From a virus (lineage: Duplodnaviria > Heunggongvirae > Uroviricota > Caudoviricetes), in the IMG/VR virus record IMGVR_UViG_2778261570_000007, positions 1-15,215 of that record: a stretch of DNA of 15,215 bases; one strand, given 5' to 3'. The notes under the pieces are model-generated. The model saw only the letters and a list, made by a program, of their open reading frames with translations, was not told where the DNA came from and ran no database searches. The first letter of the stretch is position 1. The number at the start of each line of letters is the position of its first letter. This document shows positions 1-15,215 of the stretch, in pieces. The position numbers and the translations under genes were made by a program.

Positions 1-129
1 TTGAAAGCGCCTGTAACTGATGACATCAGCAGAGCGGTGGCTTTTGCCATTAAGTGGGTGGCTGTCGGTATCGCTGTGTCTCCGATTCTGTATGGGATGG
101 CAAAATTGATCATTGCTGTGAAATCGTAA
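1..129 (+). CDS. 3' end of an ORF entering from upstream of the window; hydrophobic C-terminal segment, function unknown
   Basis: Frame 1 is open from base 1 to TAA at 127-129 and translates to ...DDISRAVAFAIKWVAVGIAVSPILYGMAKLIIAVKS. The hydrophobic stretch suggests a membrane segment. No start codon is visible because the gene begins outside the window. Confidence 0.3.
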   Translation: MKAPVTDDISRAVAFAIKWVAVGIAVSPILYGMAKLIIAVKS

Positions 130-146
130 GTGGTGCGGGGGTAAAT

Positions 147-281
147 ATGCCAGATAGCATCATAAAACTAGCGAGGATTCTCTGTGTGGTTGTTGGCCTT
201 TCATTTTCAGTGATGCTGGTTGCCATTTTCATTGCTACTGCCTGGAGAGTCTTGAGCTTATCTGGATTGATTGGTGGATAG
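147..281 (+). CDS. Small single-pass membrane protein (44 aa), function unknown
   Basis: ATG at 147 is preceded by a G-rich SD-like stretch (ggtgcggggg). The product MPDSIIKLARILCVVVGLSFSVMLVAIFIATAWRVLSLSGLIGG contains one long hydrophobic helix. The tracked ORF 54..281 includes this; I prefer the internal start because of the RBS. Confidence 0.35.
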   Translation: MPDSIIKLARILCVVVGLSFSVMLVAIFIATAWRVLSLSGLIGG

Positions 282-286
282 CTGAC

Positions 287-469
287 ATGAGCCGAAAACA
301 CTGGACACACAGAGTGCCGCGAACGACGGCGAAATGGGCACTGGTAGCGATACTGGTGCCTTTTTTATTGGTGGGATGCGTCAGCCTGGATAAGGCGCGC
401 CAGCTTTTCGATACCGCTTCTCTGGTCTGTGAAATTGTCGACGGTGTTCGGCAGTGTCTGCAGAACTGA
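287..469 (+). CDS. Putative small lipoprotein (60 aa) with signal peptide and lipobox
   Basis: The product MSRKHWTHRVPRTTAKWALVAILVPFLLVGC... has a basic n-region, a hydrophobic h-region and an L-V-G-C lipobox. The mature part is about 29 aa with two further Cys. It starts 6 nt after the preceding small ORF. Confidence 0.45.
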   Translation: MSRKHWTHRVPRTTAKWALVAILVPFLLVGCVSLDKARQLFDTASLVCEIVDGVRQCLQN

Positions 470-640
470 TCGCCTGTAAGAGCAGAATATTTTGCTGAAA
501 AATGAAGGGTGCGCCAGCGTCCGGAAAGCATGAAATTCTGTGTTTGTGGCTACTCAATAAAATAAATTCTTTCTGTCGCCGCGAATACTCAAATGTTGAT
601 CAGTGCCCGGTGCGGCGACGGGCTTCGATATCAGGAGACG

Positions 641-940
641 ATGATGGAAAAAACAGAAAACAAACCGATTGTAATTGGTGCTGATGCTGCTCCGTTTAAG
701 TTTGAGTTGTCTCAACTGGTGGAGATGCGCATCAGTGATGAATGGGGTGAGGTTAAAGCCCGCGCGCAGTATGCGTATGGCGAAAACCAGTACCTGATCC
801 ACTACAAAGCAGCTGATGGTCGCGCCACGACGGAGTGGTTTGGTGAGTCAATGCTGGAAGCAACAGAAGATGATCGTCATCCTGGTTGTCCGGTATTTGC
901 TGGTATGAAATTGCCGGAAGGCGCGGTTGTTACTGAGTAA
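641..940 (+). CDS. Hypothetical soluble protein (about 99 aa) immediately upstream of cos
   Basis: Tandem ATG codons at 641 and 644 follow an aggag SD at 633-637. The ORF is in frame with tracked ORF 593..940. The product MMEKTENKPIVIGADAAPFKFELSQLVEMRISDEWGEVKARAQYAYGENQYLIHYKAADGR... is hydrophilic and I do not recognise it. Confidence 0.5.
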   Translation: MMEKTENKPIVIGADAAPFKFELSQLVEMRISDEWGEVKARAQYAYGENQYLIHYKAADGRATTEWFGESMLEATEDDRHPGCPVFAGMKLPEGAVVTE

Positions 941-1169
941 CGGGCATTACAGCAGCCCTTCTGTGTGAGGGGCTGCGATAATGCAACACAGGAATAAAAA
1001 TCGGCAGGGAAATCCGTTAAAGATATGCCGGTGGCGAAAGGATGCCAATGGCTCCTAACCTAACTCGATGTTTCGTTGAAAGCAATAAATCATGTTGCTG
1101 GAATGTGAATGAATGTTGTTTCCATGATGCGTGTCATGTTATGCGCATCCGATATGCAAACCATTCCTA

Positions 1170-1380
1170 TTTTCACGGGTCCTTTCCAGAACCTGAAATA
1201 CCGGGGGTCTGGGGACGCGCAAAAACGCGCTATTTATGAAAATTTTCAGGGAAAAAGCAGATCCGTTCTTCTTCTGGCTAACCTGTTGTTTAATAGAGTT
1301 TTCTTAAAAAAAAGAAAGGATCTGGCAGCGGTGATTTTTCGCTGAAAAAAGCGTTTTGAGATCCTTTCTTCTTTTTGTGA
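1170..1380. promoter_or_regulatory. cos: Lambda-type cohesive-end site (cosQ, cosN, cosB with R3, IHF site, R2, R1)
   Basis: cacgggtcctttcc (1174-1187) matches the lambda right-end sequence ACGGGTCCTTTCC. The cosN-like element gggtctggggac lies at about 1205-1216. It is followed by cgctatttatgaaaattttc (1228-1247), nearly identical to lambda positions about 25-45. ccgttcttcttc (1263-1274) is R3-like. aaagaaaggatct (about 1310-1322) and agatcctttcttc (about 1360-1372) are inverted R2/R1-like repeats. The Nu1 start follows at 1393, as in lambda. Confidence 0.75.
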
Positions 1381-1392
1381 GGAATATGTGCC

Positions 1393-1941
1393 GTGAAGGT
1401 TAACAAAAAGAAACTGGCGGAAATTTTTGAGTGCGATGTCAGAACAATCACTGGCTGGCAAAGTCAGGGGCTGAGAGTTTTGTCGGGGGGAGGCAAAGGT
1501 ATCGAAGCCATGTTCAATACTGCAGAAGCCATTGAGTGGTATGCGCAGCGGGAAAAAGATATCGAAAACGAAAAGCTCCGCAAAGAACTGGAAGATTTGC
1601 GTGCGACTGCAGAATCAGATTTACAACCCGGCACCATTGACTATGAACGCTACCGGTTAACCAAAGCACAGGCTGACGCACAGGAGCTGAAAAATGCCCG
1701 TGAAGAAGGGCTGGTGCTGGAAACGGAATTGTTTACCTTCATTCTGCAACGTGTGGCACAGGAGATTTCGGGGATACTTGTACGTGTGCCGCTGACATTA
1801 CAGCGTAAATATCCGGATATTTCACCGTCACACCTTGATGTGGTGAAAACTGAAATCGCGAAAGCCTCCAATGTTGCAGCTAAAGCCGGTGAAAACGTGG
1901 GCAGGTGGATTGATGATTTCAGACGCACAGAAGGCAGCTAA
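1393..1941 (+). CDS. nu1: Terminase small subunit (lambda Nu1 family)
   Basis: GTG start with gagga SD upstream. The N-terminus [70 protein letters not shown] closely parallels lambda Nu1 (MEVNKKQLADIF...GGGKG...ENEKLRREVEELR). It sits immediately downstream of cosB. Confidence 0.9.
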
Positions 1942-3829
1942 TGCAGCCGGTGCGATAGCTACAGGGCTTTTATCTCTCAATATTCCGGTTCCACTGACGA
2001 CAGTTCAGTGGGCTGATAAACATTATTATCTGCCGAAAGAATCTTCATATACCCCCGGACAATGGGAAACCCTGCCGTTTCAGGTTGCCATTATGAACAG
2101 CATGGGAAATGACCGGATCCGCACCGTTAATCTGATTAAATCGGCGCGCGTTGGTTACACCAAAATGCTGTTGGGGGTGGAGGCTTATTTTATTGAGCAT
2201 AAATCCCGTAACAGTCTGCTTTTTCAGCCAACAGATTCTGCTGCAGAAGATTTCATGAAATCTCATGTTGAGCCCACGATAAGGGATGTCCCTGCATTGC
2301 TGGAGCTGGCTCCATGGTTCGGAAGAAAGCACCGCGATAATACACTCACCCTGAAGCGTTTTTCCTCCGGTGTGGGTTTCTGGTGCCTTGGCGGCGCCGC
2401 TGCTAAAAACTACCGTGAAAAATCTGTGGATGTGGTCTGCTATGACGAACTCTCCTCGTTTGAACCGGATGTGGAAAAAGAAGGTTCGCCGACGCTGCTT
2501 GGCGATAAGCGTATCGAAGGCTCGGTATGGCCTAAATCCATACGTGGCTCAACGCCAAAAATTAAAGGCACCTGCCAGATTGAGAAAGCCGCAAATGAAT
2601 CAGCGCATTTCATGCGGTTTTATGTCCCTTGCCCTCATTGCGGGGAGGCCCAGTATCTGAAGTTTGGCGATGATGCGACGCCATTTGGCCTGAAATGGGA
2701 GAAGGGTAAACCGGAAACGGTGTATTACCTGTGTGAACATAATGGCTGTGTGATCCGGCAGTCGGAACTTGACCAGACCGACGGGCGCTGGATTTGTGAC
2801 AATACCGGGATGTGGACGCGCGACGGCCTGGCATTTTACAGCGCCGGCGATGAGGAGATGCCACCGCCGCGCTCCGTCACTTTCCACATCTGGACGGCGT
2901 ACAGTCCGTTCACCACCTGGGTACAGATTGTTTATGACTGGCTGGATGCGCTGAAGGATCCGAACGGTGTTAAGACGTTTATTAACACCACGCTCGGGGA
3001 GCCCTATGAAGAGGCCGTGGCAGAAAAACTGAGCTTTGAGTTGTTGCTGGAAAAAGTCTGCCACTATGGCGCGCAGGTTCCCCTGCGGGTGGTTTACCTG
3101 ACCGCAGGGATCGACTCCCAGAAAGATCGCTATGAAATTTATGTCTGGGGCTGGGCTCCCGGCGAAGAAGCCTTTCTGATTGATAAGCAAATTATCATGG
3201 GGCGACCGGAAGACGAGGACACCCTTAAACGTGTTGATACGGTGATCCGGAAAAAATATCGTCATGCTGACGGTACTGAAATTTCCATTTCCCGTGTCTG
3301 CTGGGATACCGGTGGTATCGACCAGGACATTGTGTATCAGCGTTCCAGGAAACACGGCACTTTTTTTGTGCTTCCCATAAAAGGGGCATCGGTGTACGGC
3401 AAGCCGGTGATCACCATGCCCAAAAAGCGCAACCAGCGTGGTGTGTTTTTGTGTGAGGTGGGCTCCGATACCGTCAAGGAAATGCTGTACGCCCGTTTTG
3501 CCCTGCCGGTGGTCTCTGCCAGTGAAGCCGCCCCGTATACCTTCCGTTTTCCGGATAACCCCGACATTTTTTCGGAAGAAGAGGCGCGTCAGATCGTGGC
3601 GGAAGAGCTGGTGGAGAAGGTGGTTAATGGCAGGGTGAAACTGCTGTGGGATAAAAAAGGGCGACGCAACGAAGCCCTCGACTGCCTGGTATATGCCTAT
3701 GCTGCCCTGCGTATTTCAGTTCAGCGGTGGCAGCTGGATCTTGAAGCACTGGCCCGTGCCAGAAGAGATGAGCAGGACGACGATGAGATGAGTCTGGAAG
3801 AAATCGCGGCTGCACTGAGTGGAGGATAA
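1913..3829 (+). CDS. A: Terminase large subunit (lambda gpA family; ATPase and endonuclease)
   Basis: Long colinear similarity to lambda gpA, for example [25 protein letters not shown], a P-loop-like [54 protein letters not shown] and [20 protein letters not shown] prefer the ATG at 1913 (aggtgg SD at 1903-1908; about 29-nt overlap with Nu1, similar to lambda) over the tracked 1871 start. Confidence 0.92.
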
Positions 3830-3832
3830 AGA

Positions 3833-4042
3833 ATGGTTTATACGCATGAAATGCTTTGTGATGCCCGACGGGCATTACATGAACTGATGATCGGACGTGC
3901 TGTGGTTTCCGTCAGCAAGGACGGGCGTCAGGTTCAGTATTCGCGGGCGACGATTGGTGAACTGCGTCAGTATATTGAAGAGCTGGAAAGTGCGCTGGGT
4001 GTATCCGGACGGCGTCGCGGCCCGGCAGGAGTGGGGCTGTGA
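3833..4042 (+). CDS. W: Head completion / DNA stabilisation protein (lambda gpW family)
   Basis: 69 aa with a ggagga SD. ARRALHELMIGRAVVSVSKDGRQVQYSRATIGELRQYIEELE...RRRGPAG parallels lambda W (AARAALHDLMTGKRV..QKDGRRV...YIAELE...RRRGPAG). Confidence 0.85.
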   Translation: MVYTHEMLCDARRALHELMIGRAVVSVSKDGRQVQYSRATIGELRQYIEELESALGVSGRRRGPAGVGL

Positions 4043-5610
4043 ACAGGGAACTGGTGGATCTTCACGGGCAGCCACTGCGGCAGAGTATGGGGTATTCCGG
4101 AGGGGGTACCGGATTTGGCGGGCAGCTTGCGGAATGGTTGCCTGCACCGGAAAGTGCCGACGTGGCGCTCTTACCTTCCATTCAGCTGGGTAACGCCCGT
4201 GCGGATGATCTGGTCCGTAACAACGGTATTGCCGCAAATGCAGTGGAAATTCATAAAGACCATATCGTCGGGCACATGTTTCGTCTGAGCTACCGGCCCA
4301 ACTGGCGCTGGCTGGGGATGTCGGAAGCTGATTCGCATGCCTTTATTGAAGATGTGGAGGCGGCGTGGATGGAATATTGCGATCCGGTGTTTGGTTCGAT
4401 GGATGTGGAAGGGCGTCGCTCGTTTACCGAATTTATTCGTGAAGGGGTGGGGGTCCATACGTTTAACGGTGAAATTTTTGTCCAGCCCGTATGGGATACG
4501 GAATCCACGTCATTATTCAGAACAAAATTCAAGACCATCAGTCCGAAGCGCGTCAGCACGCCCGGTTATGGTACCGGCGATCGTTTTATGCGTGCCGGAG
4601 TGGAAATCAACCGTTACGGAAAGGCGATGGCTTATCATGTTCAGGACGATGACTGGCCTGGTTACGGTGTCAGCAACTGGACACGGATTGCGGCGACGCT
4701 GCCCTCCGGGCGACCGGGAATGATCCATGTGTTTCAGCCGCAGGAGGACGGACAGACGCGCGGGGCCAACCAGTTTTATTCCGTGATGGAGCGCCTCAAG
4801 ATGCTCGACACACTGCAGGCCACGCAACTGCAGTCGGCGGTGGTGCGGGCGATGTATGCCGCGACGATTGAATCCACTCTGGATTCAGAAAAAGCATTTG
4901 AATATATCGCCGGGGTGGGAGATGGCGGTAAAAATCCCCTGAACACCATCATGAAAGGCTACGCGCGTTATTACGCCACCAATACGGTAAAGCTGGGCGG
5001 GGTCCGTATTCCGCATCTTTATCCGGGGGATTCACTGAATCTGCAGACAGCGCAGAATGCAGATAATGGTTTCTCTGAACTGGAAAAGGCGCTGTTACGT
5101 TACATTGCTGCCGGGCTGGGGGTGTCCTATGAACAGCTTTCCCGTGATTATTCACAGGTCAGTTATTCCAGTGCCAGGGCATCCGCCAATGAGTCGTGGC
5201 GGTATTTTATGGGCAAACGAAAATTTGTGGCCAGCCGACTGGCATCACAGATGTTTGCCTGCTGGCTGGAGGAAGCTCTTATTCGCGGTGTGATCCGCCC
5301 GCCGAAATCCCGTTTTTCATTCTGGGAGGCCCGTTCCGGATGGTGTCGTGCCGAGTGGATTGGTGCCGGTCGCATGGCGATTGATGGCCTTAAGGAAGTG
5401 CAGGAGGCGGTGATGCGTATTGAAGGTGGCCTGAGCACGTACGAGAAAGAGCTGGCCCTGATGGGCGATGACTATCAGGAGATTTTCCGCCAGCAACTGC
5501 GTGAAAGCCAGGAGCGACAGGCAGCGGGTCTTCCCCGCCCCATCTGGATAAAGGACACGTTTCAGCAGCAGATCCGACAGACAACGGGAGAAAATGGCGA
5601 TGCGTCGTAA
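4039..5610 (+). CDS. B: Portal protein (lambda gpB family)
   Basis: GTG start overlapping the W stop by 4 nt, as in lambda. Extensive similarity to lambda gpB, for example GNARADDLVRNNG, FNGEIFVQPVWDT, GQTRGANQFYSVMERLKMLDTLQATQLQSA, LRYIAAGLGVSYEQLSR and MAIDGLKEVQEAVMRIEGGLSTYEKE. Confidence 0.92.
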   Translation: MNRELVDLHGQPLRQSMGYSGGGTGFGGQLAEWLPAPESADVALLPSIQLGNARADDLVRNNGIAANAVEIHKDHIVGHMFRLSYRPNWRWLGMSEADSHAFIEDVEAAWMEYCDPVFGSMDVEGRRSFTEFIREGVGVHTFNGEIFVQPVWDTESTSLFRTKFKTISPKRVSTPGYGTGDRFMRAGVEINRYGKAMAYHVQDDDWPGYGVSNWTRIAATLPSGRPGMIHVFQPQEDGQTRGANQFYSVMERLKMLDTLQATQLQSAVVRAMYAATIESTLDSEKAFEYIAGVGDGGKNPLNTIMKGYARYYATNTVKLGGVRIPHLYPGDSLNLQTAQNADNGFSELEKALLRYIAAGLGVSYEQLSRDYSQVSYSSARASANESWRYFMGKRKFVASRLASQMFACWLEEALIRGVIRPPKSRFSFWEARSGWCRAEWIGAGRMAIDGLKEVQEAVMRIEGGLSTYEKELALMGDDYQEIFRQQLRESQERQAAGLPRPIWIKDTFQQQIRQTTGENGDAS

Positions 5611-7216
5611 TTTATCGCATATTGCCGCCATGGCATTTAATGAGCCGCTTTTACTGGAACCCGCCTATGCGCGGGTTTTCTTTTGCGCGCTGGGTAAAGA
5701 GATGGGAGCCGGCAGCCTTGCCGTTCCTCAGCAGGCTGTTCAGCTTGATGCTGATGGTATGCAACTGGCTGTGACTGACTATATGGCGGGCGGTCAGCGT
5801 CCGGCAAAGAGTTACCAGGTGAAGAATGGCATCGCCATTCTTCCGGTGAGCGGCACGCTGGTGCATAAACTGGGTACCCTGCGGCCTTACTCCGGCATGA
5901 CTGGCTATGACGGCCTGACGGCCCGCCTTCAGATGGCGGTGAATGATCCGGATGTGCGCGGCATTTTGCTGGATATCGACAGCCCGGGCGGTCAGGCTGC
6001 CGGGGCGTTTGACTGTGCTGACATGATTTACCGTCTGCGGGAACAGAAGCCCGTGTGGGCGCTGTGTAATGACATGGCCTGTTCAGCCGCCATGTTGCTG
6101 GCGGCAGCCTGTACCCGTCGGCTGGTCACGCAGACGGCAAAAATTGGTTCGATTGGCGTGATGATGGCGCACACCAGTTACGAGAAACAACTGGCACAGG
6201 AAGGGGTGGACATCACGCTGATTTACTCCGGGCAGCATAAGGTTGACGGCAACAGTATTCAGGCATTGCCGGCAGGTGTGCGTGCAGATTTTCAGCGCCG
6301 TATTGATGAGGCCCGCCGGATGTTTGTCGACAAGGTGGCGCTTTATACGGGGCTGAGTTCAGAGGCGGTGATGAATACCGAGGCTGCCGTTTATGACGGT
6401 CAGGCAGGCATTGATGCAGGCCTGGCTGATCAACTGATTAATGCTGCAGATGCCGTTGAAGTGATGGTTTCTGCACTGAATGACTCTGTTACGAAGGAGA
6501 ATACAATGACTGTTAAAAATCTCACCGTTGCTGAAGCGGTGGCCCAGGAAAATCAGCGCGTGATGGGGATCCTGAATTGTCAGGAGGCGAAAGGGCGCGA
6601 GCAACTGGCGCAAATGCTGGCAGGTCAGCCAGGAATGACGGTTGAGCAGGCGAAAACGTTGCTTGCAGCTGCGCCGGTTGCCGGTACTGACAGCACGGGC
6701 GATCAGATTATGGGGCTGCCGGAAGCAAAGGGGCGTGAGCAACTGGCACAGATGCTGGCAGGTCAGCCGGGGATGACGGTGGAGCAGGCGAAAGCGTTTC
6801 TGGCGGCAGCCCCTGCTGCTGGTGCTGCAGGCACAGGCGATCAGATTATGGCGTTACCGGAAGCAAAAGGGCGTGAACAACTCGCGCAGGCGCTGGCTGA
6901 ACAGCCGGGAATGACCGTTGACCAGGCCAAAACGTTACTGGCGGCGGCACCGGTTGCGGGTTCTGCAAGTGTCGGCGATCAGATTATGGCGCTGCCGGAG
7001 GCAAAAGGGCGCGAGCAACTTGCACAGGCACTGACAGAACAACCGGGAATGACGGTGGCGCAGGCGAAAACGCTGCTGGCAGCCGCGCCGGCGGCATCGC
7101 AACCGTCACAGGAAACACTTTTTGATCGCTTTATGGCACAGCATGCTGCCAGTGCGGTTTCCGGTGGCGGAACTGCCGGGCGCGGGGAGGAAGACCTGCT
7201 GATGAGTATGCCGTAA
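5594..7216 (+). CDS. C: Capsid maturation protease (S49/ClpP-like, lambda gpC family) with an expanded C-terminal scaffold domain
   Basis: Overlaps B by 17 nt. The N-terminus HIAAMAFNEPLLLEPAYARVFFCAL matches lambda C (HIASMAFNEPLMLEPAYARVFFCAL). Protease-core motifs include PYSGMTGY, ILLDIDSPGG, VWALCNDMACSAA and RRLVTQTAKIGSIGVMMAH. At 540 aa it is about 100 aa longer than lambda C because of internal tandem repeats. Confidence 0.9.
   Translation: MAMRRNLSHIAAMAFNEPLLLEPAYARVFFCALGKEMGAGSLAVPQQAVQLDADGMQLAVTDYMAGGQRPAKSYQVKNGIAILPVSGTLVHKLGTLRPYSGMTGYDGLTARLQMAVNDPDVRGILLDIDSPGGQAAGAFDCADMIYRLREQKPVWALCNDMACSAAMLLAAACTRRLVTQTAKIGSIGVMMAHTSYEKQLAQEGVDITLIYSGQHKVDGNSIQALPAGVRADFQRRIDEARRMFVDKVALYTGLSSEAVMNTEAAVYDGQAGIDAGLADQLINAADAVEVMVSALNDSVTKENTMTVKNLTVAEAVAQENQRVMGILNCQEAKGREQLAQMLAGQPGMTVEQAKTLLAAAPVAGTDSTGDQIMGLPEAKGREQLAQMLAGQPGMTVEQAKAFLAAAPAAGAAGTGDQIMALPEAKGREQLAQALAEQPGMTVDQAKTLLAAAPVAGSASVGDQIMALPEAKGREQLAQALTEQPGMTVAQAKTLLAAAPAASQPSQETLFDRFMAQHAASAVSGGGTAGRGEEDLLMSMP
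6506..7216 (+). CDS. nu3: Putative Nu3-like scaffolding protein from an internal in-frame start within C
   Basis: A strong SD aaggaga (6494-6500) precedes an in-frame ATG at 6506 (MTVKNLTVAEAVAQENQRVMGILNC...). In lambda, Nu3 is nested in-frame in the 3' part of C. Internal initiation here is inferred, not demonstrated. Confidence 0.5.
   Translation: MTVKNLTVAEAVAQENQRVMGILNCQEAKGREQLAQMLAGQPGMTVEQAKTLLAAAPVAGTDSTGDQIMGLPEAKGREQLAQMLAGQPGMTVEQAKAFLAAAPAAGAAGTGDQIMALPEAKGREQLAQALAEQPGMTVDQAKTLLAAAPVAGSASVGDQIMALPEAKGREQLAQALTEQPGMTVAQAKTLLAAAPAASQPSQETLFDRFMAQHAASAVSGGGTAGRGEEDLLMSMP
6584..7135 (+). repeat. In-frame tandem repeat, four copies of 138 bp (46 aa), inside the C/Nu3 coding region
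   Basis: Unit starts at 6584, 6722, 6860 and 6998 (period exactly 138 nt). Each encodes about EAKGREQLAQMLAGQPGMTVEQAKTLLAAAPVAG-x6-GDQIMALP. Copies differ by point substitutions and the last copy diverges at its 3' end. Confidence 0.85.
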
Positions 7217-7254
7217 GCGATATCCGGAATTCAGATAAATCAGGAGGCTGAAAA

Positions 7255-7590
7255 ATGATTAAAACCACCACGGAAAAGCGTGCAGATGTGCGCATTTTTG
7301 CCGGAAGCGATCCGGCGCATACCGCAACAGCCACCAGTGGTATCAGTGCTGCCACACCTGCACTGACGCCACTGATGGTGGATGACGCCACCGGAAAACT
7401 GGTTGTCTGGGATGGTCAGAAAGCCGGAACGGCTGTGGGTGTGCTGGCTCTGGCGCTTGCCGGGACCGAGCCCATGCTGACGTACTACAAAAGCGGTACG
7501 TTTGCCACTGAGTCGCTGGTCTGGCCTGGTTCGGTGGATGCGGTGAAAAAAGCCAACGCATTTGTGGGAAGTGCCATCAGCCACGCCTGA
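7255..7590 (+). CDS. D: Head decoration protein (lambda gpD family)
   Basis: 111 aa with a caggagg SD. [38 protein letters not shown]...[15 protein letters not shown]...AFVGSAIS parallels lambda gpD ([27 protein letters not shown]...KLVAWDG...FYKSGTF...AFAGTAIS). Confidence 0.9.
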   Translation: [111 protein letters not shown]

Positions 7591-7612
7591 TGGTGAAGTG
7601 ATTAACTGAAAA

Positions 7613-7642
7613 AACGGGTCGCGATGCGGCCCGTTTGTGTTT
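7613..7642 (+). terminator. Stem-loop with U-rich tail between D and E (candidate partial terminator or mRNA-stabilising hairpin)
   Basis: aacgggtcgc (7613-7622), loop gat, gcggcccgtt (7626-7635): a 10-bp stem including one G-U pair, followed by tgtgttt. It lies 18-47 nt upstream of the E start. Confidence 0.4.
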
Positions 7643-7659
7643 CTGAAGGAAAATAAATT

Positions 7660-8688
7660 ATGGGGTTATTTACCACGCGTCAGTTACTCGGGTACACCGA
7701 GCAGAAAGTGAAATTTCGTGCGCTGTTTCTGGAGCTGTTCTTTCGTCGCACGATCACTTTCCATACTCAGGAAGTCATGCTGGATAAAATTACCGGCAAA
7801 ACACCGGTTGCAGCGTATGTGTCTCCGGTGGTGTCAGGCAAAGTGCTGCGCAGCCGTGGTGGTGAAACCCGTGTGTTACGTCCCGGTTATGTAAAACCAA
7901 AACACCGCTTTGATTATCAGCAGGCAGTGGAACGTCTTCCGGGAGAAGATCCGGCCCGCCTTAATGACCCGGCTTACCGCCGTCTGCGTATTCTGACGGA
8001 CAACCTGAAACAGGAAGAGCAGGCGATTGTGCAGGTGGAAGAAATGCAGGCAGTCAGTGCTGTTCTGCAGGGTAAATACACTATGAGCGGCGAGCAGTTT
8101 GAGACGGTGGAAGTGGATTTTGGGCGTTCTGCCGCCAATAACATTACGCAGGCTGGCGGACGCGAATGGTCAAAGCAGAATGCTGACACCTTTGATCCGA
8201 CGCATGATCTTGATGCGTACTGCGATTTTGCTTCCGGTACCATCAATATCGCGATTATGGACGGCACGGTCTGGCGTATGCTGAACGGTTTTAAACTGTT
8301 CCGTGAAAAACTGGATACCCGCCGTGGCTCCAAATCTGAGCTGGAAACCGCACTGAAAGACCTGGGGTCCGTGGTTTCCTTTAAGGGCTGGTACGGCGAT
8401 CTGGCTGTCGTGGTGGCGAAGACAACGTATGTTGACGAAAACGGGGATGAACAGCGTTATCTGCCGGAAGGCACACTGATTCTGGGAAATACCCAGGCGG
8501 AAGGCGTCCGTTGCTATGGCGCAATCCAGGATAATCAGGCGCTGAGTGAAGGGATCACCTCTGCGATTCGTTATCCGAAACACTGGGAGGAAGTGGGGGA
8601 TCCTGGTTGCGAATATACCATGACGCAGTCTGCGCCGTTGATGGTGCTGCCGGATCCGGATGCGTTTGTGGTGGTTCAGGTGAAATAA
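7660..8688 (+). CDS. E: Major capsid protein (lambda gpE family)
   Basis: 342 aa (lambda E is 341). Extensive colinear similarity: YVSPVVSGKVLRSRGG, PGYVKPKH, EDPARLNDPAYRRLRI, AIVQVEEMQAVSAVLQGKYTMSGEQF, NNITQAGGREWSK, KLDTRRGSKSELETALKDLG, LGNTQAEG and TMTQSAPLMVLPDPDAFVVVQ. Confidence 0.93.
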   Translation: MGLFTTRQLLGYTEQKVKFRALFLELFFRRTITFHTQEVMLDKITGKTPVAAYVSPVVSGKVLRSRGGETRVLRPGYVKPKHRFDYQQAVERLPGEDPARLNDPAYRRLRILTDNLKQEEQAIVQVEEMQAVSAVLQGKYTMSGEQFETVEVDFGRSAANNITQAGGREWSKQNADTFDPTHDLDAYCDFASGTINIAIMDGTVWRMLNGFKLFREKLDTRRGSKSELETALKDLGSVVSFKGWYGDLAVVVAKTTYVDENGDEQRYLPEGTLILGNTQAEGVRCYGAIQDNQALSEGITSAIRYPKHWEEVGDPGCEYTMTQSAPLMVLPDPDAFVVVQVK

Positions 8689-8693
8689 GACAG

Positions 8694-8719
8694 GGCGGGA
8701 TATTCCCGCCTTTTTCTTT
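8694..8719 (+). terminator. Rho-independent terminator-like hairpin immediately after E
   Basis: ggcggga (8694-8700), loop tat, tcccgcc (8704-8710): a perfect 7-bp GC-rich stem followed by tttttcttt (8711-8719). Confidence 0.7.
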
Positions 8720-8738
8720 AGCGCACGGGAGAGATGTG

Positions 8739-9104
8739 ATGACAAAAGAGCAGATGACTAAACGTTTGCAGGAACTGGCAGTGATTCTGGGGCGTGAAGC
8801 AGATATTTCAGGTTCAAAAGCCGATCTTGAGCAGCGTCTGGCGGAATGGGAGGAGGAGGCCGCTGGATTCGATGGGGAGGAGACGGGGAAGGAAGAGGTG
8901 GGCAACGATGCATCCGGCGACGGAATGCATTCTGAGCAGGGACTCGCCCGGGTGCGTATGCTGAAAACGGCGCATATGCCAGCCTGTGATGCTGTGACGG
9001 GAAAAATGTTGATGTTTGCCCGGGCCTCCAGTGTTGTGCTGGTTAATGAAGCCGCAGTTCCTGCGTTGCTGGCAGACGGTCTGGCAGAAAAAATCCGGGA
9101 GTGA
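8739..9104 (+). CDS. FI: DNA packaging / head assembly protein (lambda gpFI family)
   Basis: ATG at 8739 with a gggagag SD, in frame with tracked ORF 8607..9104. The N-terminus MTKEQMTKRLQELAVILGREADISGSKADLEQRLAEWEEE resembles lambda FI (MTKDELIARLRSLGEQL...GTKEEL..RVAELKEE). The middle is acidic and the C-terminal domain hydrophobic, as in FI. Confidence 0.75.
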   Translation: MTKEQMTKRLQELAVILGREADISGSKADLEQRLAEWEEEAAGFDGEETGKEEVGNDASGDGMHSEQGLARVRMLKTAHMPACDAVTGKMLMFARASSVVLVNEAAVPALLADGLAEKIRE

Positions 9105-9508
9105 TGATGTTCGATAATCTGTTCGATCAGGCCATGAGTGATGCGGATGACATCATCCTGGATACGATGGGGACGGAAATCAGCATATATCCGGGCGGCA
9201 CGGAAAGAAAAATCCGTGCCGTTTTTGATGCCCCGGCAGATAACACCGGGATGAACACTGGCAGCGGCGAAATTCGTGATACTGCGCCCGTGTTATTTAC
9301 CCGGAGCGCATGGGCCGCCGGTCTGAAAAAATATGACAGGGTCATGATCCACGGCGAACCCTATCAGGTAGTCGATCCCGGCTGGGATGAGTCAGGCGCT
9401 GCGGGTCAGGGGGTGATTACCATCACCCTTGCGCGTGGAGAGCCCGGGAGAAATACACCTGCTGCACCGGAACGACCGAGTAAACGTTATGGCAGTCAGA
9501 GAGCATGA
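9104..9508 (+). CDS. FII: Head-tail connector protein (lambda gpFII family)
   Basis: MMFDNLFDQAMSDADDIILDTMGTEISI...AVFDAP...PVLFTRS...GLKKYDRVMIHGE parallels lambda FII (MADFDNLFDAAIARADETIRGYMGTSATI...GVFDDP...PSLFVRTDE...LRRGDTLTIGEE). The start overlaps the FI stop. The exact start (GTG 9101, ATG 9104 or ATG 9107) is uncertain. Confidence 0.8.
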   Translation: MMFDNLFDQAMSDADDIILDTMGTEISIYPGGTERKIRAVFDAPADNTGMNTGSGEIRDTAPVLFTRSAWAAGLKKYDRVMIHGEPYQVVDPGWDESGAAGQGVITITLARGEPGRNTPAAPERPSKRYGSQRA

Positions 9509-10211
9509 ACGAAGCAGTGCCCGGCAGCGACGGCTGGCACGAAACCTCGTTGTCGATATTGATGAAGATGAGGTGCTGAAAATTATCGCTAAACTGGGTG
9601 GGTCAAAAAGTCAGATCCGTAAAGCCTGGGGCGTGGCGCTGAAAAGAGCCGCGTCTGCACTGCGGATGAAGGCTATGGCAGAGTTTAAAAAACAGGTTGC
9701 CCCACGCAGTCAGAAAATGATCAAAAAGCGTGTTCTGCATAATTTTATCATTCGTCGTAACGGTGATGAGTTTGATGAGGCGAAGGTATGGTTCGGTCTG
9801 AACGCCATCAAAGTACGCGATCTGCGCGGACGCATCAGTGGGGGACGACGCGGCGAACGCCATCAGTTGCGCGATGAGCGGGGGCGTTTTGCACCAGCTT
9901 CCAGCCGCAGGAAGGCTCGGGAGATCAGTTTTAAACCTGCCGGGGAATCCCTGCCTGTCACCGCCTGGTCAACGGATGATGCCTTTATCAACCAGTTCGA
10001 AGCGGAAAATCGTAACGGACGTATATCAAAAAGGAAAACGATACTGATCCGACAGGCATCCGGACGACGGAGGGTGCGTGAAGCGGAAATTGATATTTAT
10101 GAAGCCATGCTGAACCGTATAGAGGATTTTGTTTTTCCGGATGCGGAAGCACTGATCCTGAAAAATTTTGAGCATGAACTGAAATTCCGGGTATTTAAGG
10201 GGCTGGAGTGA
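9489..10211 (+). CDS. Putative tail-completion protein, possibly lambda gpZ-like (basic, about 240-260 aa)
   Basis: Sits where lambda has Z (after FII, before U). Highly basic composition with Z-like segments (KRAASALRMKAMAEFKKQV...; AKVWFGLNAIKVRDLRG versus lambda Z ARIKVNRGDLPVIKLGN). The similarity is weak and from memory. The start is uncertain (tracked ATG 9429 overlaps FII by 80 nt; the in-frame ATG at 9489 has a poor SD). Confidence 0.4.
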   Translation: MAVREHERSSARQRRLARNLVVDIDEDEVLKIIAKLGGSKSQIRKAWGVALKRAASALRMKAMAEFKKQVAPRSQKMIKKRVLHNFIIRRNGDEFDEAKVWFGLNAIKVRDLRGRISGGRRGERHQLRDERGRFAPASSRRKAREISFKPAGESLPVTAWSTDDAFINQFEAENRNGRISKRKTILIRQASGRRRVREAEIDIYEAMLNRIEDFVFPDAEALILKNFEHELKFRVFKGLE

Positions 10212-10774
10212 TGGAGCCATTGATGATGGGAGCCTGGCATCAGGCGGTGATTGACAGTCTGAAACAAATTCCCTGGGTGGAAGATGCCGATGAGTACCCG
10301 GAAAAAGTGACGCAACTGGTGACGCCTGCCGTGTTTGTGGATGTGCCCGGCTGGGACAAGGCTCAGTTTGCCGACGGGCAGACGCGGGTCACGCTGAAAT
10401 GCGATCTGTTTGTGGTGACTGACCGGGCCGGGAAGACGGAGAACGTGCCAAAACCGCAGATATTTGCCCGCTGTCTGGCAATGGATTTATCTGACTGGAT
10501 TGATGGAGCCACGTTCGGGCTGGATAACGTTTACCCGGCTGTTTTTATCGATGCTGAGGTGGATACCTTCGACCGGCTGCTGGACGACTACATCGTTTTC
10601 CGTGTCTCTTTCGAACAGGACATTCCGGTCGGCGAAGATCCGTTTGCAGTTCAGGCAGGTGCGCCGTTACAGGAAGTCTGGCTGGGTAAAGTACCGGAAA
10701 CCGGTAAAAAGCATGTGCAGGATTATCGTCTTATCTGGAAAGCGGAGGGCACCGGCGATGAGTCTGGCGGATGA
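10211..10774 (+). CDS. Putative tail terminator / tail-completion protein, possibly lambda gpU-like, with a C-terminal extension
   Basis: Lies after the Z-like gene, where lambda has U. AVIDSLKQ...PAVFVDVPG...TRVTLKCDLFVV loosely parallels lambda U (AAVLDALEK...PAVAVYLTG...ELHIEVFL). The start overlaps the upstream stop (GTG 10208 / ATG 10211). At 187 aa it is longer than lambda U (131 aa). Confidence 0.45.
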   Translation: MEPLMMGAWHQAVIDSLKQIPWVEDADEYPEKVTQLVTPAVFVDVPGWDKAQFADGQTRVTLKCDLFVVTDRAGKTENVPKPQIFARCLAMDLSDWIDGATFGLDNVYPAVFIDAEVDTFDRLLDDYIVFRVSFEQDIPVGEDPFAVQAGAPLQEVWLGKVPETGKKHVQDYRLIWKAEGTGDESGG

Positions 10775-11381
10775 AGTGGCTGAGTTACGCCGCAGGGTGG
10801 CGGACATGGTCCGTCGCGGCGTGGTGGAAGTGGTGATCCCGGGTAGCCCGGTGATGGTCCGGGTGGATATCGGAGATGTGCTTTCGCCGCCGTTGCCCTG
10901 GATTCAGGTGCAGTCCGGGCGTTACATGCAGGTCAGTAATTACCCGGCACCAGGAGATGCGGTCACGGTGATATCGGAGGCAGGTGATCTGCGTAATGGT
11001 CGGGTGTATCCGGGGGCCAACATTGACGCGATTCCGGTACCGGCGGGCAGTGAACACGAGCATGTTATTTTGTTTGATACCGGAACGGAGATCCGTTACG
11101 ACCGCAAGGCTAATGCCCTGTCCATCACGCTGGCTGAAGGCGGCAGCTATAAAATCACCGGCAGGGGAATGCTTGACGGTCCGGTGGAAATCACGGATAC
11201 CCTGACTGTGCAGGGAAAAACGAAGATTAATGCCGATACGCAGGTTCTGGGCAATATCGGTGCCTCACAGGAGATCACCGACAAAACCGGTAGCATGAGT
11301 AAAATTCGCGAAATTTATAATACTCATGATCACCCTGGCGACAGCGGGGGAACCACCCGTAAACCTAACCAGGAAATGTGA
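10758..11381 (+). CDS. V: Baseplate assembly / spike protein (P2 gpV family)
   Basis: ATG at 10758 with a ggaggg SD, overlapping the upstream stop by 17 nt. The N-terminus MSLADEVAELRRRVADMVRRGVV parallels P2 V (NIQELARALRNMIRTGII). The C-terminal NTHDHPGDSGGTT matches the P2 V motif HTHKHPGDSGGTT. The tracked ORF 10464..11381 contains this frame. Confidence 0.85.
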   Translation: MSLADEVAELRRRVADMVRRGVVEVVIPGSPVMVRVDIGDVLSPPLPWIQVQSGRYMQVSNYPAPGDAVTVISEAGDLRNGRVYPGANIDAIPVPAGSEHEHVILFDTGTEIRYDRKANALSITLAEGGSYKITGRGMLDGPVEITDTLTVQGKTKINADTQVLGNIGASQEITDKTGSMSKIREIYNTHDHPGDSGGTTRKPNQEM

Positions 11382-11402
11382 ACGCCGCACCGGCGTTTTT
11401 TT
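11382..11402 (+). terminator. Terminator-like hairpin with T-run between V and W (candidate attenuator)
   Basis: acgccg (11382-11387), loop cac, cggcgt (11391-11396), followed by a 7-T run (11396-11402). The next gene starts at 11415 without an obvious SD. Confidence 0.4.
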
Positions 11403-11414
11403 CGGAAAAATTTC

Positions 11415-11771
11415 ATGATTGGTATTGATTCCGCCACTGGCAGATATCTGCACGGTAACGAACATCTGCGTCAGTCCGTCACCGATATTTTATCAACACC
11501 GGTCGGCAGCCGGGTACTTCTCAGGGAATACGGCAGCAGGTTGTTCAGTCTGCTTGATAACCCGCAGGATGATTTTACGCGGGTGAGGATTGTCCGTGAA
11601 ACGGCAACCGCCCTTGAACGCTGGGAGCCCCGCCTGACCCTCCGGCGGGTGGAGGTGACGTGGACAGGAGAAGGAAGCGCCTGGCTGACGCTTGTCGGGG
11701 TGAACAACGAAACACAGGAAACGATTCGACTCGAGGAGATAAAAATTGGCAGCATCTCAGGCCATTATTGA
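11415..11771 (+). CDS. W: Baseplate wedge protein (P2 gpW / T4 gp25-like family)
   Basis: 118 aa. SVTDILSTPVGSRVLLREYGSRLFSLLDNPQ...ALERWEPRLTL parallels P2 W (SIGDILRTPVGSRVMRRDYGSLLASMIDQPQ...KWEPRVTL). Confidence 0.85.
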   Translation: MIGIDSATGRYLHGNEHLRQSVTDILSTPVGSRVLLREYGSRLFSLLDNPQDDFTRVRIVRETATALERWEPRLTLRRVEVTWTGEGSAWLTLVGVNNETQETIRLEEIKIGSISGHY

Positions 11772-12660
11772 TCTGTCCGCGATACCTGTACCGGATGCGG
11801 TGGAGGTGCCGGACACCGCTGTACTGGTCACTCAGATAGTGGCGAAATATCAGGAACTGGACACGTTGTTTTCGGCCCTGGTGGAATCTGATCCCGCGTA
11901 TAAATGGGCAGAGGCGCTGGCTTTTCGGGTGGCGCTGATGCGCCAGCAGATAAATGATGCTGTCCGTGCTGTACTGCTTGCCAGTGCCGGTGGGAGCGAT
12001 CTGGATCAGGTTGGCGCGAATTATCAGGTTCAGCGGCTGGTCATTACCCCGGCAGACGACAGCACCATTCCGCCCACGCCGGCGGTGTATGAACATGATG
12101 ACGCTTTTCGCGAACGTATCCAGTTGTCGTGGGCACGGCTCAGCACCGCCGGCGCGAAAAATGCGTATCACTATTTTGCACAAAGTGCTGATCCTGATGT
12201 GCTGGATGTGAAGGCTTACGGGCCGGAAACGCATTCGCAGGAAGGTCGGGTTTTTCTTTATGTGTTATCCCGCTCCGGAAATGGCACTGCACCACAACCC
12301 CTGCTGGATAAGGTGGCAGCATCAGTCAGTGATGATGAAACCCGTCCCCTGACGGATTTTGTCAGTGTCCGGACGGCAGAAATTATTCCCTACGATGTGG
12401 TGGCGGATATTCATATTCCCTACGGACTGGATGGTGAACTGGTTATGTCAAATGCCCGCAAGGCGCTGCAGTCATACACTGACAGCGTCCACCGGATTGG
12501 CTCGGTGGCATCCCGTTCCGGCATGGATGGTGCCCTTCACCAGACCGGGGTGATTACGGTGAATCTGACCTCTCCGGGCAGTGATATCGTTCCTGCGATG
12601 GGGCAGGCACCGTGGTGCCGTAAGGTAACGCTGAATAAGGTGGAGACAACTGATGAATGA
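11746..12660 (+). CDS. J: Baseplate assembly protein (P2 gpJ family)
   Basis: TTG start at 11746 preceded by a gaggag SD (11733-11738). IIDLSAIPVPDAV, LDQVGANYQVQRLVITPADDSTIPPTPAV and a C-terminal ...TTDE parallel P2 J (IIDLNQLPAPDVV, LDVIGANYNTTRLTITPADDSTIPPTPAV, ...GGSDE). Confidence 0.88.
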   Translation: MAASQAIIDLSAIPVPDAVEVPDTAVLVTQIVAKYQELDTLFSALVESDPAYKWAEALAFRVALMRQQINDAVRAVLLASAGGSDLDQVGANYQVQRLVITPADDSTIPPTPAVYEHDDAFRERIQLSWARLSTAGAKNAYHYFAQSADPDVLDVKAYGPETHSQEGRVFLYVLSRSGNGTAPQPLLDKVAASVSDDETRPLTDFVSVRTAEIIPYDVVADIHIPYGLDGELVMSNARKALQSYTDSVHRIGSVASRSGMDGALHQTGVITVNLTSPGSDIVPAMGQAPWCRKVTLNKVETTDE

Positions 12661-13243
12661 CGATATCAGGAGCATACTGCCGGTCAGTGCCAGCCGGGCA
12701 GAGCGGGTGGTGGACTGTGTCTCCGGAGATATGCTGTCAGACATAGCGGTCTGCCTGATCCGCTATGTGAAAAATCCCGATTTATGCCCTGCTGAATTGC
12801 TGCCATGGCTGGCCTGGGAAATGGCGGTGGATACCTGGAATGAACACTGGACGGAGACGGAAAAAAGGTCTGCGATAAAACGTGCTGCTTACATCCACCG
12901 ACACAGAGGGACTAAAGCGGCGCTGATGGCATCGCTGGCTGACAGTCCCTTCCGGTCGCAGATTGTTGAGTGGTATGAGCAGACCCCGCCCGGGGAGCCG
13001 TATACCTTTCGTCTGAACGTGGAACAGAAGGATTTACCGGTGCTGATGAATGATCATCAGGATCTTAAGCATGCGGTGCTCCGTGCCAAAAATCTGCGCA
13101 GCTGGTTCAGTATTCACGTTTACGGGAACAGCACAGGGCGTGGATTTGGTTACGGCTATGTGATGGCGACAGAAAAAATCAGAAGTACTGGTGTGACAAC
13201 AAAGACAGTGCCCACAGGCGGGCAGAGTGAGGCAGGTGTATGA
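12653..13243 (+). CDS. I: Baseplate / tail protein (P2 gpI family)
   Basis: NPDLCPAELLPWLAWEMAVDTWNEHWTETEKRSAIKRAAYIHRHRGTKAAL...EWYEQTPPGEPYTFRL parallels P2 I (NPDTCPANLLPWLAWAFSVDRWDEKWPEATKRAVIRDAYFIHCHKGTIGAV...EWWENSDPPGTFRL). Overlaps J by 8 nt. Confidence 0.85.
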   Translation: MNDDIRSILPVSASRAERVVDCVSGDMLSDIAVCLIRYVKNPDLCPAELLPWLAWEMAVDTWNEHWTETEKRSAIKRAAYIHRHRGTKAALMASLADSPFRSQIVEWYEQTPPGEPYTFRLNVEQKDLPVLMNDHQDLKHAVLRAKNLRSWFSIHVYGNSTGRGFGYGYVMATEKIRSTGVTTKTVPTGGQSEAGV

Positions 13244-14499
13244 ATGGACTGATTCTGACAACGTCCGGCGCTGCAGAAATTGAAGCAGCATATCAGAACG
13301 GGCAAACCGTGACCGTCCGGCATGTTCTGCTTGGTGACGGGGGCGGGCGGGCATTGCCATCCACGCCGGATGAAATGGCAGCAATGACATCGTTGTACGG
13401 CGAATTCGGGCAGGAACCCTTTTCCGACGGTGCGATGGAGGAGGGCTTCATCAGCGGGGATATTGTGATTGACTGTAAATCATACCCCGGTAAAACCCTT
13501 CGTGAACTGGGGATGATCAGCGACAGAGGTACGCTTATCGCGTACGGACGTTATCCCGACACCTTTTTACCAGACCAGACGGACTCCGTTATCAAGGAAG
13601 TTATTCTGACGCTGGTTCTTGGGCTGACGCACGCACAAAACGTGGTGCTGGAAGTTGATCCGGACAGGGCCATTATTACTCAGGAAATCGGAGACAGACG
13701 CTATCTGCAACGAAAAAAGAATCTTTCGGATGTGGAAGACAAGGATGAGGCTGTTGAAAACCTCGGATTAAAACCCACGGTGGACAAGGCAAAAAATGCC
13801 GTTCAGCGTGATGGTGACACCATGACCGGGGAGCTGAAAATCCGTGGTGTTAATGCGCTGAGGATTTTCAACGAAGCCTTTGGCCTGATTTTTCGTCGTT
13901 CGGAAGAGTGCCTGCACCTTATTCCAACACAGGAAAACCAGGGTGAAAATGGCGATATTGGTCCACTTCGCCCGTTCACTATTAATCTGCGGACGGGTGA
14001 AATATCCATGTCGCATAAAGTGTCTGTTGGTGGCGGTTCTCAGGTGAATGGTGCGCTGGGTATCGGCGTTCAGAATGCCCTGGGCGGAAACTCAATTGCT
14101 TTCGGGGATAACGATACCGGCCTGAAACAGAATGGTGATGGCCTGCTGGATGTTTATGCCAATGGTCAGCACGTATTCCGTTTTCAGAATGGCGCGTTAC
14201 AAAGTAACCGGGCGGTGAACGTTACTGGGCGGGTAACACCGTCAGACTACGGAAACTTTGATGCCCGTTACCAGACCAAAACAGGCGGCGTGCAGGATGT
14301 GCGTTATGGTTCCGAAATGTATTACAACCCGGGAGGTAACGAGATAACCTGGACGTTTCGCTCACCTTCAGGCCACGGATTATCCGGTATTTATGTGCAG
14401 GATACCGGAAGAAGTTCGGCAGATAACATTGGTGGTGTGTATTACAGACCGCTTCAGAAACTGATTAACGGCACCTGGTATAACGTGGCGAGTGTTTAA
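13240..14499 (+). CDS. H: Tail fibre protein (P2 gpH family), short form
   Basis: The N-terminus (TTSGAAEIEAA...VTVRHVLLGDGGG) and the C-terminal region (KAKNAVQRDGDTMTGEL; NALGGNSIAFGDNDTGLKQNGDGLLDVYANGQHVFRFQNG; GNFDARY; YRPLQKLINGTWYNVASV) parallel P2 H (NAVQKNGDTLSGGL; NALGGSSIVLGDNDTGFKQNGDGILDVYANSQRVFRFQNG; FRPIQKYINGTWYNVAQV). At 419 aa it is much shorter than P2 H as I recall it. Confidence 0.85.
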   Translation: MNGLILTTSGAAEIEAAYQNGQTVTVRHVLLGDGGGRALPSTPDEMAAMTSLYGEFGQEPFSDGAMEEGFISGDIVIDCKSYPGKTLRELGMISDRGTLIAYGRYPDTFLPDQTDSVIKEVILTLVLGLTHAQNVVLEVDPDRAIITQEIGDRRYLQRKKNLSDVEDKDEAVENLGLKPTVDKAKNAVQRDGDTMTGELKIRGVNALRIFNEAFGLIFRRSEECLHLIPTQENQGENGDIGPLRPFTINLRTGEISMSHKVSVGGGSQVNGALGIGVQNALGGNSIAFGDNDTGLKQNGDGLLDVYANGQHVFRFQNGALQSNRAVNVTGRVTPSDYGNFDARYQTKTGGVQDVRYGSEMYYNPGGNEITWTFRSPSGHGLSGIYVQDTGRSSADNIGGVYYRPLQKLINGTWYNVASV

Positions 14500-14501
14500 C
14501 A

Positions 14502-15044
14502 ATGTTGCATTTAAAAAATATTACTGCAGGCAATCCGAAAACCGCAGAACAATATCAGATGACAAAACAACATGGTATCACCTGGCTTTTTTCGGAAGAT
14601 GACAAAAACTGGTATGAAGAACAGAAGAACTTTGCCAGTGACACCATAAAAATGGTTTACACCGGAGACGGGCGCGTGGTGTGGGTCGGTAAGGATGTGA
14701 CAGGCATTGAACCCCGTAACGCCAGTGTTATTGAAGTTCCTGATATTACCGCTAATCGCCGTATTACCGTGCCTGGTTACTGGTTTTACCGCAACGATAA
14801 ATTTGTCTTCGACTACAAACTAAAAGCGGAAGATGAGCGCGATGCTCTGTTAAAACAGGTCAGCATCATGACCAGCGAATGGGAAAAAGACCTGCTGCTG
14901 GGATTAATCAGTGACGAAGACAGGGGGAAGCTGAAAGCGTACCGCATTTACGCGAAATCGCTGCAGGCGATGGATTTCAGCGCTATTACGGATAAGCCCA
15001 CTTACAACAATATTAGCTGGCCTGAACAGCCACAAAATACCTGA
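14502..15044 (+). CDS. G: Tail fibre assembly chaperone (P2 gpG / Tfa family)
   Basis: MLHLKNITAGNPKTAEQYQMTK...WLFSEDDKNWYEEQKNFASDTIKMVY...VIEVPDITANRR parallels P2 G ([22 protein letters not shown]...[26 protein letters not shown]...VVEVPDITSNRR). Starts 3 nt after the H stop. Confidence 0.88.
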   Translation: MLHLKNITAGNPKTAEQYQMTKQHGITWLFSEDDKNWYEEQKNFASDTIKMVYTGDGRVVWVGKDVTGIEPRNASVIEVPDITANRRITVPGYWFYRNDKFVFDYKLKAEDERDALLKQVSIMTSEWEKDLLLGLISDEDRGKLKAYRIYAKSLQAMDFSAITDKPTYNNISWPEQPQNT

Positions 15045-15063
15045 AAAAGAAGTTAATCATCTG

Positions 15064-15086
15064 ACCGCCTGAGGGCGGTTTTTTTA
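15064..15086 (+). terminator. Rho-independent terminator after the tail fibre assembly gene
   Basis: accgcc (15064-15069), loop tgag, ggcggt (15074-15079), followed by a 7-T run (15079-15085), about 20 nt after the G stop. Confidence 0.7.
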
Positions 15087-15098
15087 TGGGAGAAATGT

Positions 15099-15164
15099 AT
15101 GTCCGGATTACATGGTGTTGAAACCATTGAACTGACGACAGGCACGGTTGCCGTGCAGACGTAA
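15099..15164 (+). pseudogene. Tail sheath-like N-terminal fragment (21 codons then TAA)
   Basis: ATG at 15099 with a gggag SD (15088-15092). MSGLHGVETIELTTGTVAVQT* resembles the N-terminus of the P2 FI sheath (MSDYHHGVQVLEINEGTRVISTV...) but ends at TAA 15162-15164. The remaining 51 nt in any frame do not look like sheath sequence. Confidence 0.35.
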
Positions 15165-15215
15165 GCGGCTCGTCAGAACCGTATTGATATTTACTGAGAG
15201 CTCAGATCAACTTTC

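Follow-up and report, generated by a model that had tools for sequence, protein, structure and literature searches.

A tandem array of scaffold modules in the nested protease/scaffold gene of an Escherichia coli lambdoid prophage

Why should a phage gene whose lambda homologue carries a certain segment once hold four copies of it, head to tail and in frame? The question is raised by a gene in the 15,215-nucleotide (nt) stretch of DNA analysed here (IMG/VR record IMGVR_UViG_2778261570_000007, positions 1 to 15,215; hereafter the window), which belongs to an Escherichia coli lambdoid prophage. The gene encodes a protein of 540 amino acids (aa) resembling the prohead protease C of phage lambda, and the repeats lie in the scaffold part of this protein. 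We show that the array is old and that every unit is held by strong purifying selection on the protein. As to what the array does, we lean slightly toward the view that this conserved, ancient set of modules in a lambda-type nested gene consists of docking units, which would make the chains that carry them multivalent in the procapsid.

The array is old and its units are under purifying selection on the protein

A preliminary description of this locus, made from the DNA letters, had placed four in-frame copies with an exact 138-nt period at positions 6584-7135 and, finding only a few substitutions between them, had suggested a recent duplication. The geometry was confirmed. The motif EAKGRE starts at 6584, 6722, 6860 and 6998, always in frame with the open reading frame (ORF) at 5594-7216, and the period is therefore exactly 138 nt, with the frame preserved. 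Tandem Repeats Finder reported an array at 6583-7091 (period 138, 3.7 copies, 80% matches, score 578), and a separate repeat search returned start-to-start spacings of 138 and 138. The interval first proposed does equal 4 x 138 nt and is acceptable in that sense, but the similarity of the fourth unit ends near 7091-7114. We prefer a register that runs from 6554 to 7114 (aa 321-507; unit boundaries in Table 1), because the segment QRVMGILNCQ before unit 1 then matches the DQIMxLP that precedes the other units. A short helix in the C-terminal tail, at 7115-7140 (LFDRFMAQH; ALDRLMQG in lambda), is similar in sequence to the residues that open the units (DQIMAL, at 6701, 6839 and 6977), and in view of this likeness the original duplication breakpoints may lie within it.

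The age first proposed for the array did not hold, nor did the small number of substitutions. Pairwise differences among units 1-3 amount to 26-29 of 138 nt, and those between unit 4 and these three to 51-54 of 138. The 31-codon core has only 2-6 codons with non-synonymous differences between units, against 10-15 with synonymous ones. By the Nei-Gojobori method, synonymous divergence (dS) between units is 0.7-1.8, while non-synonymous divergence (dN) in the core is 0.03-0.12 and the core dN/dS ratio is 0.02-0.15. The core of the unit is invariant, and it is the linkers that vary. With synonymous sites close to saturated and the amino acids conserved, the duplication cannot be called recent, and the predominance of synonymous differences indicates that each copy is under purifying selection on the protein.

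The array is also genuine. Several complete E. coli chromosomes contain the 1623-nt gene at 100% identity. The region with its flanks is matched over at least 80% of its length in 101 complete E. coli genomes, and the four-unit span is present in nearly all of an evenly spaced sample from those 101. Because about 100 complete genomes show the four-unit form, an assembly artefact, which had been named at the outset as grounds for abandoning the array, is excluded. Draft genomes are a separate matter. Many draft E. coli assemblies (P0271-P0277, P0125 and others) keep the array solely as contigs of 237-270 bp annotated 'S49 family peptidase, partial', where short-read assembly breaks at the array; because the array fragments such assemblies, draft genomes are not a reliable source for copy numbers.

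The gene, its two predicted products and the modelled fold of the module

The gene is a homologue of lambda C/Nu3, as the preliminary description had proposed. Its protein matches PF01343 (Peptidase_S49) with 116.2 bits against a cutoff of 24.9 and is 54% identical to lambda C; its residues S164 and K216 align with S166 and K218 of lambda C, so that the Ser/Lys dyad of the S49 family is conserved. S166 of lambda C is reportedly catalytic, in work from 2010. Copies of the 540-aa protein with 100% identity occur in several complete E. coli genomes, where they are annotated 'S49 family peptidase'. The ORF opens with MAMRRN at 5594, a start that overlaps the end of the portal gene, and homologues in the RefSeq database begin at the second methionine (ATG 5600), which gives a length of 538 aa. 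The gene is placed between the portal and the decoration/major capsid genes, as a lambda-type position requires: genes for the small and large terminase subunits, a W-like adaptor and the portal lie upstream, and D-like decoration, E-like capsid, FI-like and FII-like genes lie downstream.

A second product is predicted from the same reading frame. An in-frame internal start at ATG 6506 is present that would yield a Nu3-like scaffold sharing the C-terminus of the protease. The methionine at this start is kept in all homologues inspected, despite the variable linker around it, and gene 6 of phage 21 has an annotated ribosome-binding site and start at the position homologous to AAGGAG/ATG 6506. 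Two PHROG families of scaffold/capsid-assembly proteins, phrog_8399 and phrog_8940, each match the nested ORF in four stretches. From the S49 domain, the neighbouring genes and the internal ribosome-binding site with its conserved ATG, we therefore identify the locus as a nested protease/scaffold gene of the C/Nu3 type. The repeat array falls within the part that is common to the full-length protease and the Nu3-like scaffold.

Table 1. Coordinates in the window of the protease/scaffold gene, its parts and other genes of the prophage
Feature	Position	Strand	Evidence
C-like prohead protease/scaffold ORF, 540 aa	5594..7216	+	ORF list, translation
Peptidase_S49 domain, aa 148-292	6035..6469	+	Pfam match
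Shine-Dalgarno sequence AAGGAG, 6 nt 5' of internal in-frame ATG	6494..6499	+	read from sequence
Nested Nu3-like scaffold ORF (putative), 236 aa, C-terminus common with protease	6506..7216	+	in-frame ATG 6506
Module 1, aa 321-369, QRVMGILNCQEAKGREQLAQMLAGQPGMTVEQAKTLLAAAP + linker	6554..6700	+	hidden Markov model (HMM) domain, independent E-value (i-E) 3e-31; alignment
Module 2, aa 370-415	6701..6838	+	HMM domain; alignment
Module 3, aa 416-461	6839..6976	+	HMM domain; alignment; AlphaFold2 (AF2) model of single unit
Module 4, aa 462-507; linker unlike the others, runs into tail	6977..7114	+	HMM domain; alignment
Conserved C-terminal tail (TLFDRFMAQH...EEDLLMSMP)	7115..7213	+	aligns with lambda C tail ALDRLMQG...NDLL
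Portal gene, lambda B-like, upstream neighbour	4039..5610	+	phrog_21, E 6e-180
Head decoration gene, D-like, downstream neighbour	7255..7590	+	phrog_49
Major capsid protein gene, lambda E-like	7660..8688	+	Pfam Phage_cap_E, E 8e-66; phrog_2353
gp25/W-like baseplate gene	11415-11771		
Baseplate_J gene	11746-12660		
Tail_P2_I gene	12653-13243		
Tail fibre gene	13240-14499		
Fibre assembly gene	14502-15044		

Structure prediction for a single unit, one of the steps proposed in advance, was run on module 3 with AF2 and gave a helix at residues 6-20, the loop EQPGMT and a helix at residues 27-36, with a predicted local distance difference test score (pLDDT) of about 81 in the core. Each module is thus predicted to be a helix-loop-helix hairpin of about 40 aa followed by a short variable linker. 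The model of the whole 236-aa scaffold consists of short helices arranged like beads on a string, with a mean pLDDT of 69 and a predicted template modelling score of 0.27. Invariant or near-invariant positions of the unit comprise hydrophobic residues (I3, L15, L19, M25, V27 and L34) and a charged patch (E8, K10, R12 and E13); these charged surface residues are compatible with a binding face.

Searches against known families and structures returned little. Neither Pfam nor NCBIfam has a family that covers the module, and weak sub-threshold Pfam matches to DUF732, T2SSK and Bac_DNA_binding were set aside as background of the kind that Ala-rich helices produce. When the Nu3-like part was compared by sequence with the PDB, the only match, to bL12, was at chance level (E 0.11). 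Foldseek with the 236-aa model found nothing in the PDB at E < 2, as expected for a flexible multi-module chain. Fold searches gave generic helical hairpins only, and the helix-turn-helix (HTH) of the P22 scaffold had neither a sequence match nor a significant fold match.

Two observations concern the remainder of the window. The lambda-type head module, which begins with the small terminase subunit, ends with an FII-like head-closure gene at 9101-9508; baseplate genes of the P2 contractile-tail type start within about 2 kb of it, and the prophage region 9101-15044 contains no siphovirus tail genes. From this succession of head module and baseplate genes, the prophage therefore combines a lambda-type head with a P2-type tail. 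Inside the protease part, at 5908-5923, there is a perfect 8-nt tandem in two copies (TGACGGCC x2), which is probably trivial.

Distribution and copy-number dynamics

The copy count among homologues that had been called for was carried out on the best 120, of which 75 have three units and 41 have four; two more have five, and the last two are odd forms. Four-unit proteins with 91-99% identity occur in E. coli, E. albertii, E. marmotae, Citrobacter and Salmonella, and four units are the fixed modal state of the window's clade across several genera.

More distant relatives give another picture. When 1.84 billion cluster representatives were searched with a profile, the module turned up in 416 proteins. 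Among the best 150 of these, 58 are full-length (at least 380 aa), and 55 of the 58 have a single module, always 30-60 aa before the C-terminus. One module plus the tail is therefore the general architecture and the conserved core of the scaffold. It is probably also the ancestral one, and the arrays are best read, from these sequence comparisons, as a derived state of enterobacterial prophages, in which multiple copies are the norm. The preliminary description had said that its account would be overturned if four copies were the universal ancestral condition; they are not, because one copy is the general state in distant relatives. The family as a whole ranges from 1 to 5 units. Within the phage collection, multi-unit forms are found in relatives of 21, Gifsy-1 and PhiR12, and lambda, N15, phi80 and HK225 have one unit; no record in that collection covers at least 80% of the four-unit scaffold. 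A profile search of a set of 5.8 billion proteins with the unit alignment, aimed at the largest arrays, returned short fragments only.

The expectation that the array would be a substrate for copy-number change was borne out, since close relatives carry alleles of four units as well as independent alleles of three and of five. Positional orthology among these relatives equates unit 1 of the window with their unit 1, unit 3 with the penultimate unit and unit 4 with the last, and it is the interior units that turn over. In STEC313 and STEC308, a five-unit protein of 584 aa has three unit-1-like copies at its beginning that differ by only 5-11 nt, and the fifth unit in two other homologues (P0001 and P0020) arose by duplication of unit 2. 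A three-unit homologue (P0027) is close to a four-unit one (P0037), and four others (P0039, P0040, P0041 and P0043) have units homogenised inside the array. Copy number thus drifts between 3 and 5 through unequal recombination or conversion. Such changes are rare, and the four-unit form is stable.

Some homologues depart from this pattern in other ways. In two arrays of the phage 21 type (P0105 and P0107, 551 aa), the extra unit was duplicated out of register. Another phage-21-type homologue (P0044, 657 aa) has a larger internal duplication of about 156 aa, by which the last part of the protease domain, the internal start of the Nu3 type and two and a half modules occur twice. In an E. coli protein of 610 aa annotated 'baseplate assembly protein V' (P0042), the C sequence breaks off inside unit 3, after EQPGMTV, and is joined to the product of the window ORF at 10464-11381, with the junction at about 6920 and about 10880-10944; this looks like the result of a deletion of about 4 kb in a decayed prophage, by which genes D, E, FI and FII were lost.

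Possible functions of the modules and comparison with known systems

According to the reading that we slightly favour, each module would dock independently onto a partner in the procapsid. The major capsid protein is the candidate we prefer, with the portal or scaffold self-association as alternatives. The array would then make one scaffold chain multivalent, so that it could cross-link several subunits during shell assembly, and would tether the protease inside the procapsid; once the shell is assembled, cleavage by the protease, perhaps in the linkers, would break the chain into fragments that can leave. We propose docking because the module and the tail are the only scaffold element found throughout the family, because both products carry the module, and because each copy is selected. 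The capsid protein is preferred because of the analogy with the HTH elements of the P22 and phi29 scaffolds and because Nu3 of lambda is reported to interact with E; the partners reported for Nu3 are E, C, B and Nu3 itself (PMC3224144).

Several points weigh against this proposal. The AF2 confidence for the module and scaffold models is moderate only. The unit has no net charge, and in this it is unlike the coat-binding hairpin of the P22 scaffold, which is basic. Nu3 of lambda is said, in the title of a report from 2011, to be intrinsically disordered. The conserved C-terminal tail, instead of the module, could be the real capsid-binding element. Finally, lambda, N15 and phi80 have one module with the same family of capsid proteins and similar genome sizes, and extra copies are therefore unnecessary for a lambda-sized head.

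The alternative that we take most seriously, although we consider it clearly less probable than docking onto the capsid protein, is that the modules mediate association between scaffold chains or binding to the portal (B). The array would in that case replace oligomerisation between chains or strengthen nucleation at the portal. Relations between Nu3 and Nu3, C and Nu3, and Nu3 and B in lambda (PMC3224144, curated literature table and two-hybrid screen) are consistent with this, as is the conservation of the extreme C-terminal tail if the tail is what binds the capsid; however, the same source also reports the interaction between Nu3 and E.

It is also conceivable, if rather improbable, that the units are mainly cleavable spacers or space-fillers, which would fix the tether length from the protease domain to a tail bound to the capsid and whose repeated cleavage sites would break the scaffold into small peptides able to exit. 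The predicted beads-on-a-string architecture with variable linkers would suit such a role, and lambda has a long Ser/Thr/acidic linker at the same position instead of extra modules. The linkers begin P-[VA]-A-G, and there is a weak hint from lambda B, whose mature peptide probably begins after ...REYA|G, going by the annotated mat_peptide coordinates and the B sequence. A spacer alone, however, fails to explain the near-invariant core residues and their low dN/dS.

The remaining explanations fare much worse. A recent, selectively neutral expansion of a disordered scaffold segment by slippage or recombination would be in keeping with the alleles of three, four and five units, and the near-identical units of some five-unit alleles do record recent events elsewhere in the family. 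For the window itself we regard it as very improbable, since it is already contradicted by the divergence and core selection measured between the window's units, as well as by a four-unit form common to five taxa and about 100 complete genomes. An action of the repeat at the level of DNA or RNA, through protein-binding sites or structured RNA with the coding repeat incidental, is more improbable still: the amino acids are constant and the variation sits at synonymous positions, which argues against it; an Rfam scan of the window gave no match; no minus-strand ORF consistently spans the units; and the support found for it did not go beyond two pattern-only matches to CII sites in the phage 21 gene. 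Expansion or collapse of the repeat during assembly has a negligible chance of being correct, because although short-read drafts do break at the array, the identical gene recurs in independent complete genomes and the units, at about 80% identity, are distinct enough for unambiguous assembly.

A role of the array as a ruler of capsid size was considered separately and rejected. Lambda has one unit and a genome of 48.5 kb, phage 21 three units and 42.9 kb, and Gifsy-1 three units and 48.5 kb; because copy number does not track genome size, such a ruler is unlikely.

A broader form of the docking proposal, which we put forward tentatively and consider doubtful, is that lambdoid scaffolds dock by means of this module as their elementary unit, that each Nu3 or protease chain becomes multivalent when the module is repeated in tandem, and that copy number (1, 3, 4 or 5 in nature) tunes how T=7 shells nucleate and how faithfully they assemble, or the resistance to capsid-hijacking satellites. 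If this were true, the alleles found in nature would already provide a series for testing how scaffold valency controls capsid assembly. Lambda head assembly is a textbook system, yet it includes a conserved scaffold module with no curated domain family and no solved structure. The module is an invariant core across a wide family of S49 proteases and scaffolds, enterobacterial prophages keep arrays of three to five under purifying selection, and the natural copy-number series can be used to test both module binding and the importance of valency.

The closest known system is phage 21, whose genes 5 and 6 are the analogues of lambda C and Nu3. As in the window, they form a nested protease/scaffold pair (about 73% nt identity over the protease) with in-frame tandem modules in the scaffold (Nu3-analogue) part. 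An HMM built from the four units of the window matches phage 21 gp5 at aa 316-368, 369-413 and 416-463 (i-E 4e-19, 6e-16 and 1e-14), and these matches coincide with features annotated 'Tri1 box', 'Tri box' and 'Tri3 box' in the head-operon record of that phage (GenBank M81255.1), where the boxes are labelled 'function unknown; putative'. Repeats of this kind had thus been recorded before, in phage 21, and the new element in the window is the four-unit allele; a literature search on the Tri box and on tandem repeats in Nu3 or prohead proteases found no paper that discusses these repeats. The three units of phage 21 have diverged strongly from one another, whereas the four of the window are far more alike in protein, because the array was rebuilt or homogenised in the window's clade. 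A phage 21 genome record (OL657228.1) also marks two 'CII binding sites' in the scaffold gene (309-322 and 543-556), which were assigned by the pattern ttgynnnnnnttgy only and are probably chance matches.

Phage lambda itself shares with the window the gene order B-C/Nu3-D-E, the module and the C-terminal tail. In lambda C the same HMM detects one unit and no more (aa 359-407), in agreement with the single occurrence given in the preliminary description; this unit follows a long Ser/Thr/acidic linker, whereas the window has four modules. The window's protein is 101 aa longer than lambda C, close to the lengthening of about 100 aa that had been estimated. The annotated Nu3 of lambda starts inside the protease domain, whereas the Nu3-like ORF of the window starts at 6506, after the S49 domain. 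The gpC homologues of Gifsy-1 and other Salmonella lambdoid prophages (496-515 aa, 58-65% identity to the window's protein) have an array like that of the window, with three units that have diverged by position.

Beyond the lambdoid phages the likeness is one of function or of gene organisation. The HTH of the P22 scaffold controls binding to the capsid protein (PMC11922011). It and the HTH of the phi29 scaffold are functional analogies only: each is a small hairpin of helices, close to the C-terminus of the scaffold, that docks the scaffold to the capsid protein. In P22 the hairpin is present once and there is no protease, whereas the window has four predicted helix-loop-helix modules together with a protease.

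The proteases of herpesvirus UL26/UL26.5 and of phage P2 gpO belong to families unrelated to the S49 family of the window, and we know of no tandem module array in either system. Nevertheless, their organisation is like that of the window, in that one gene provides a C-terminal assembly domain common to protease and scaffold (PMC8508860).

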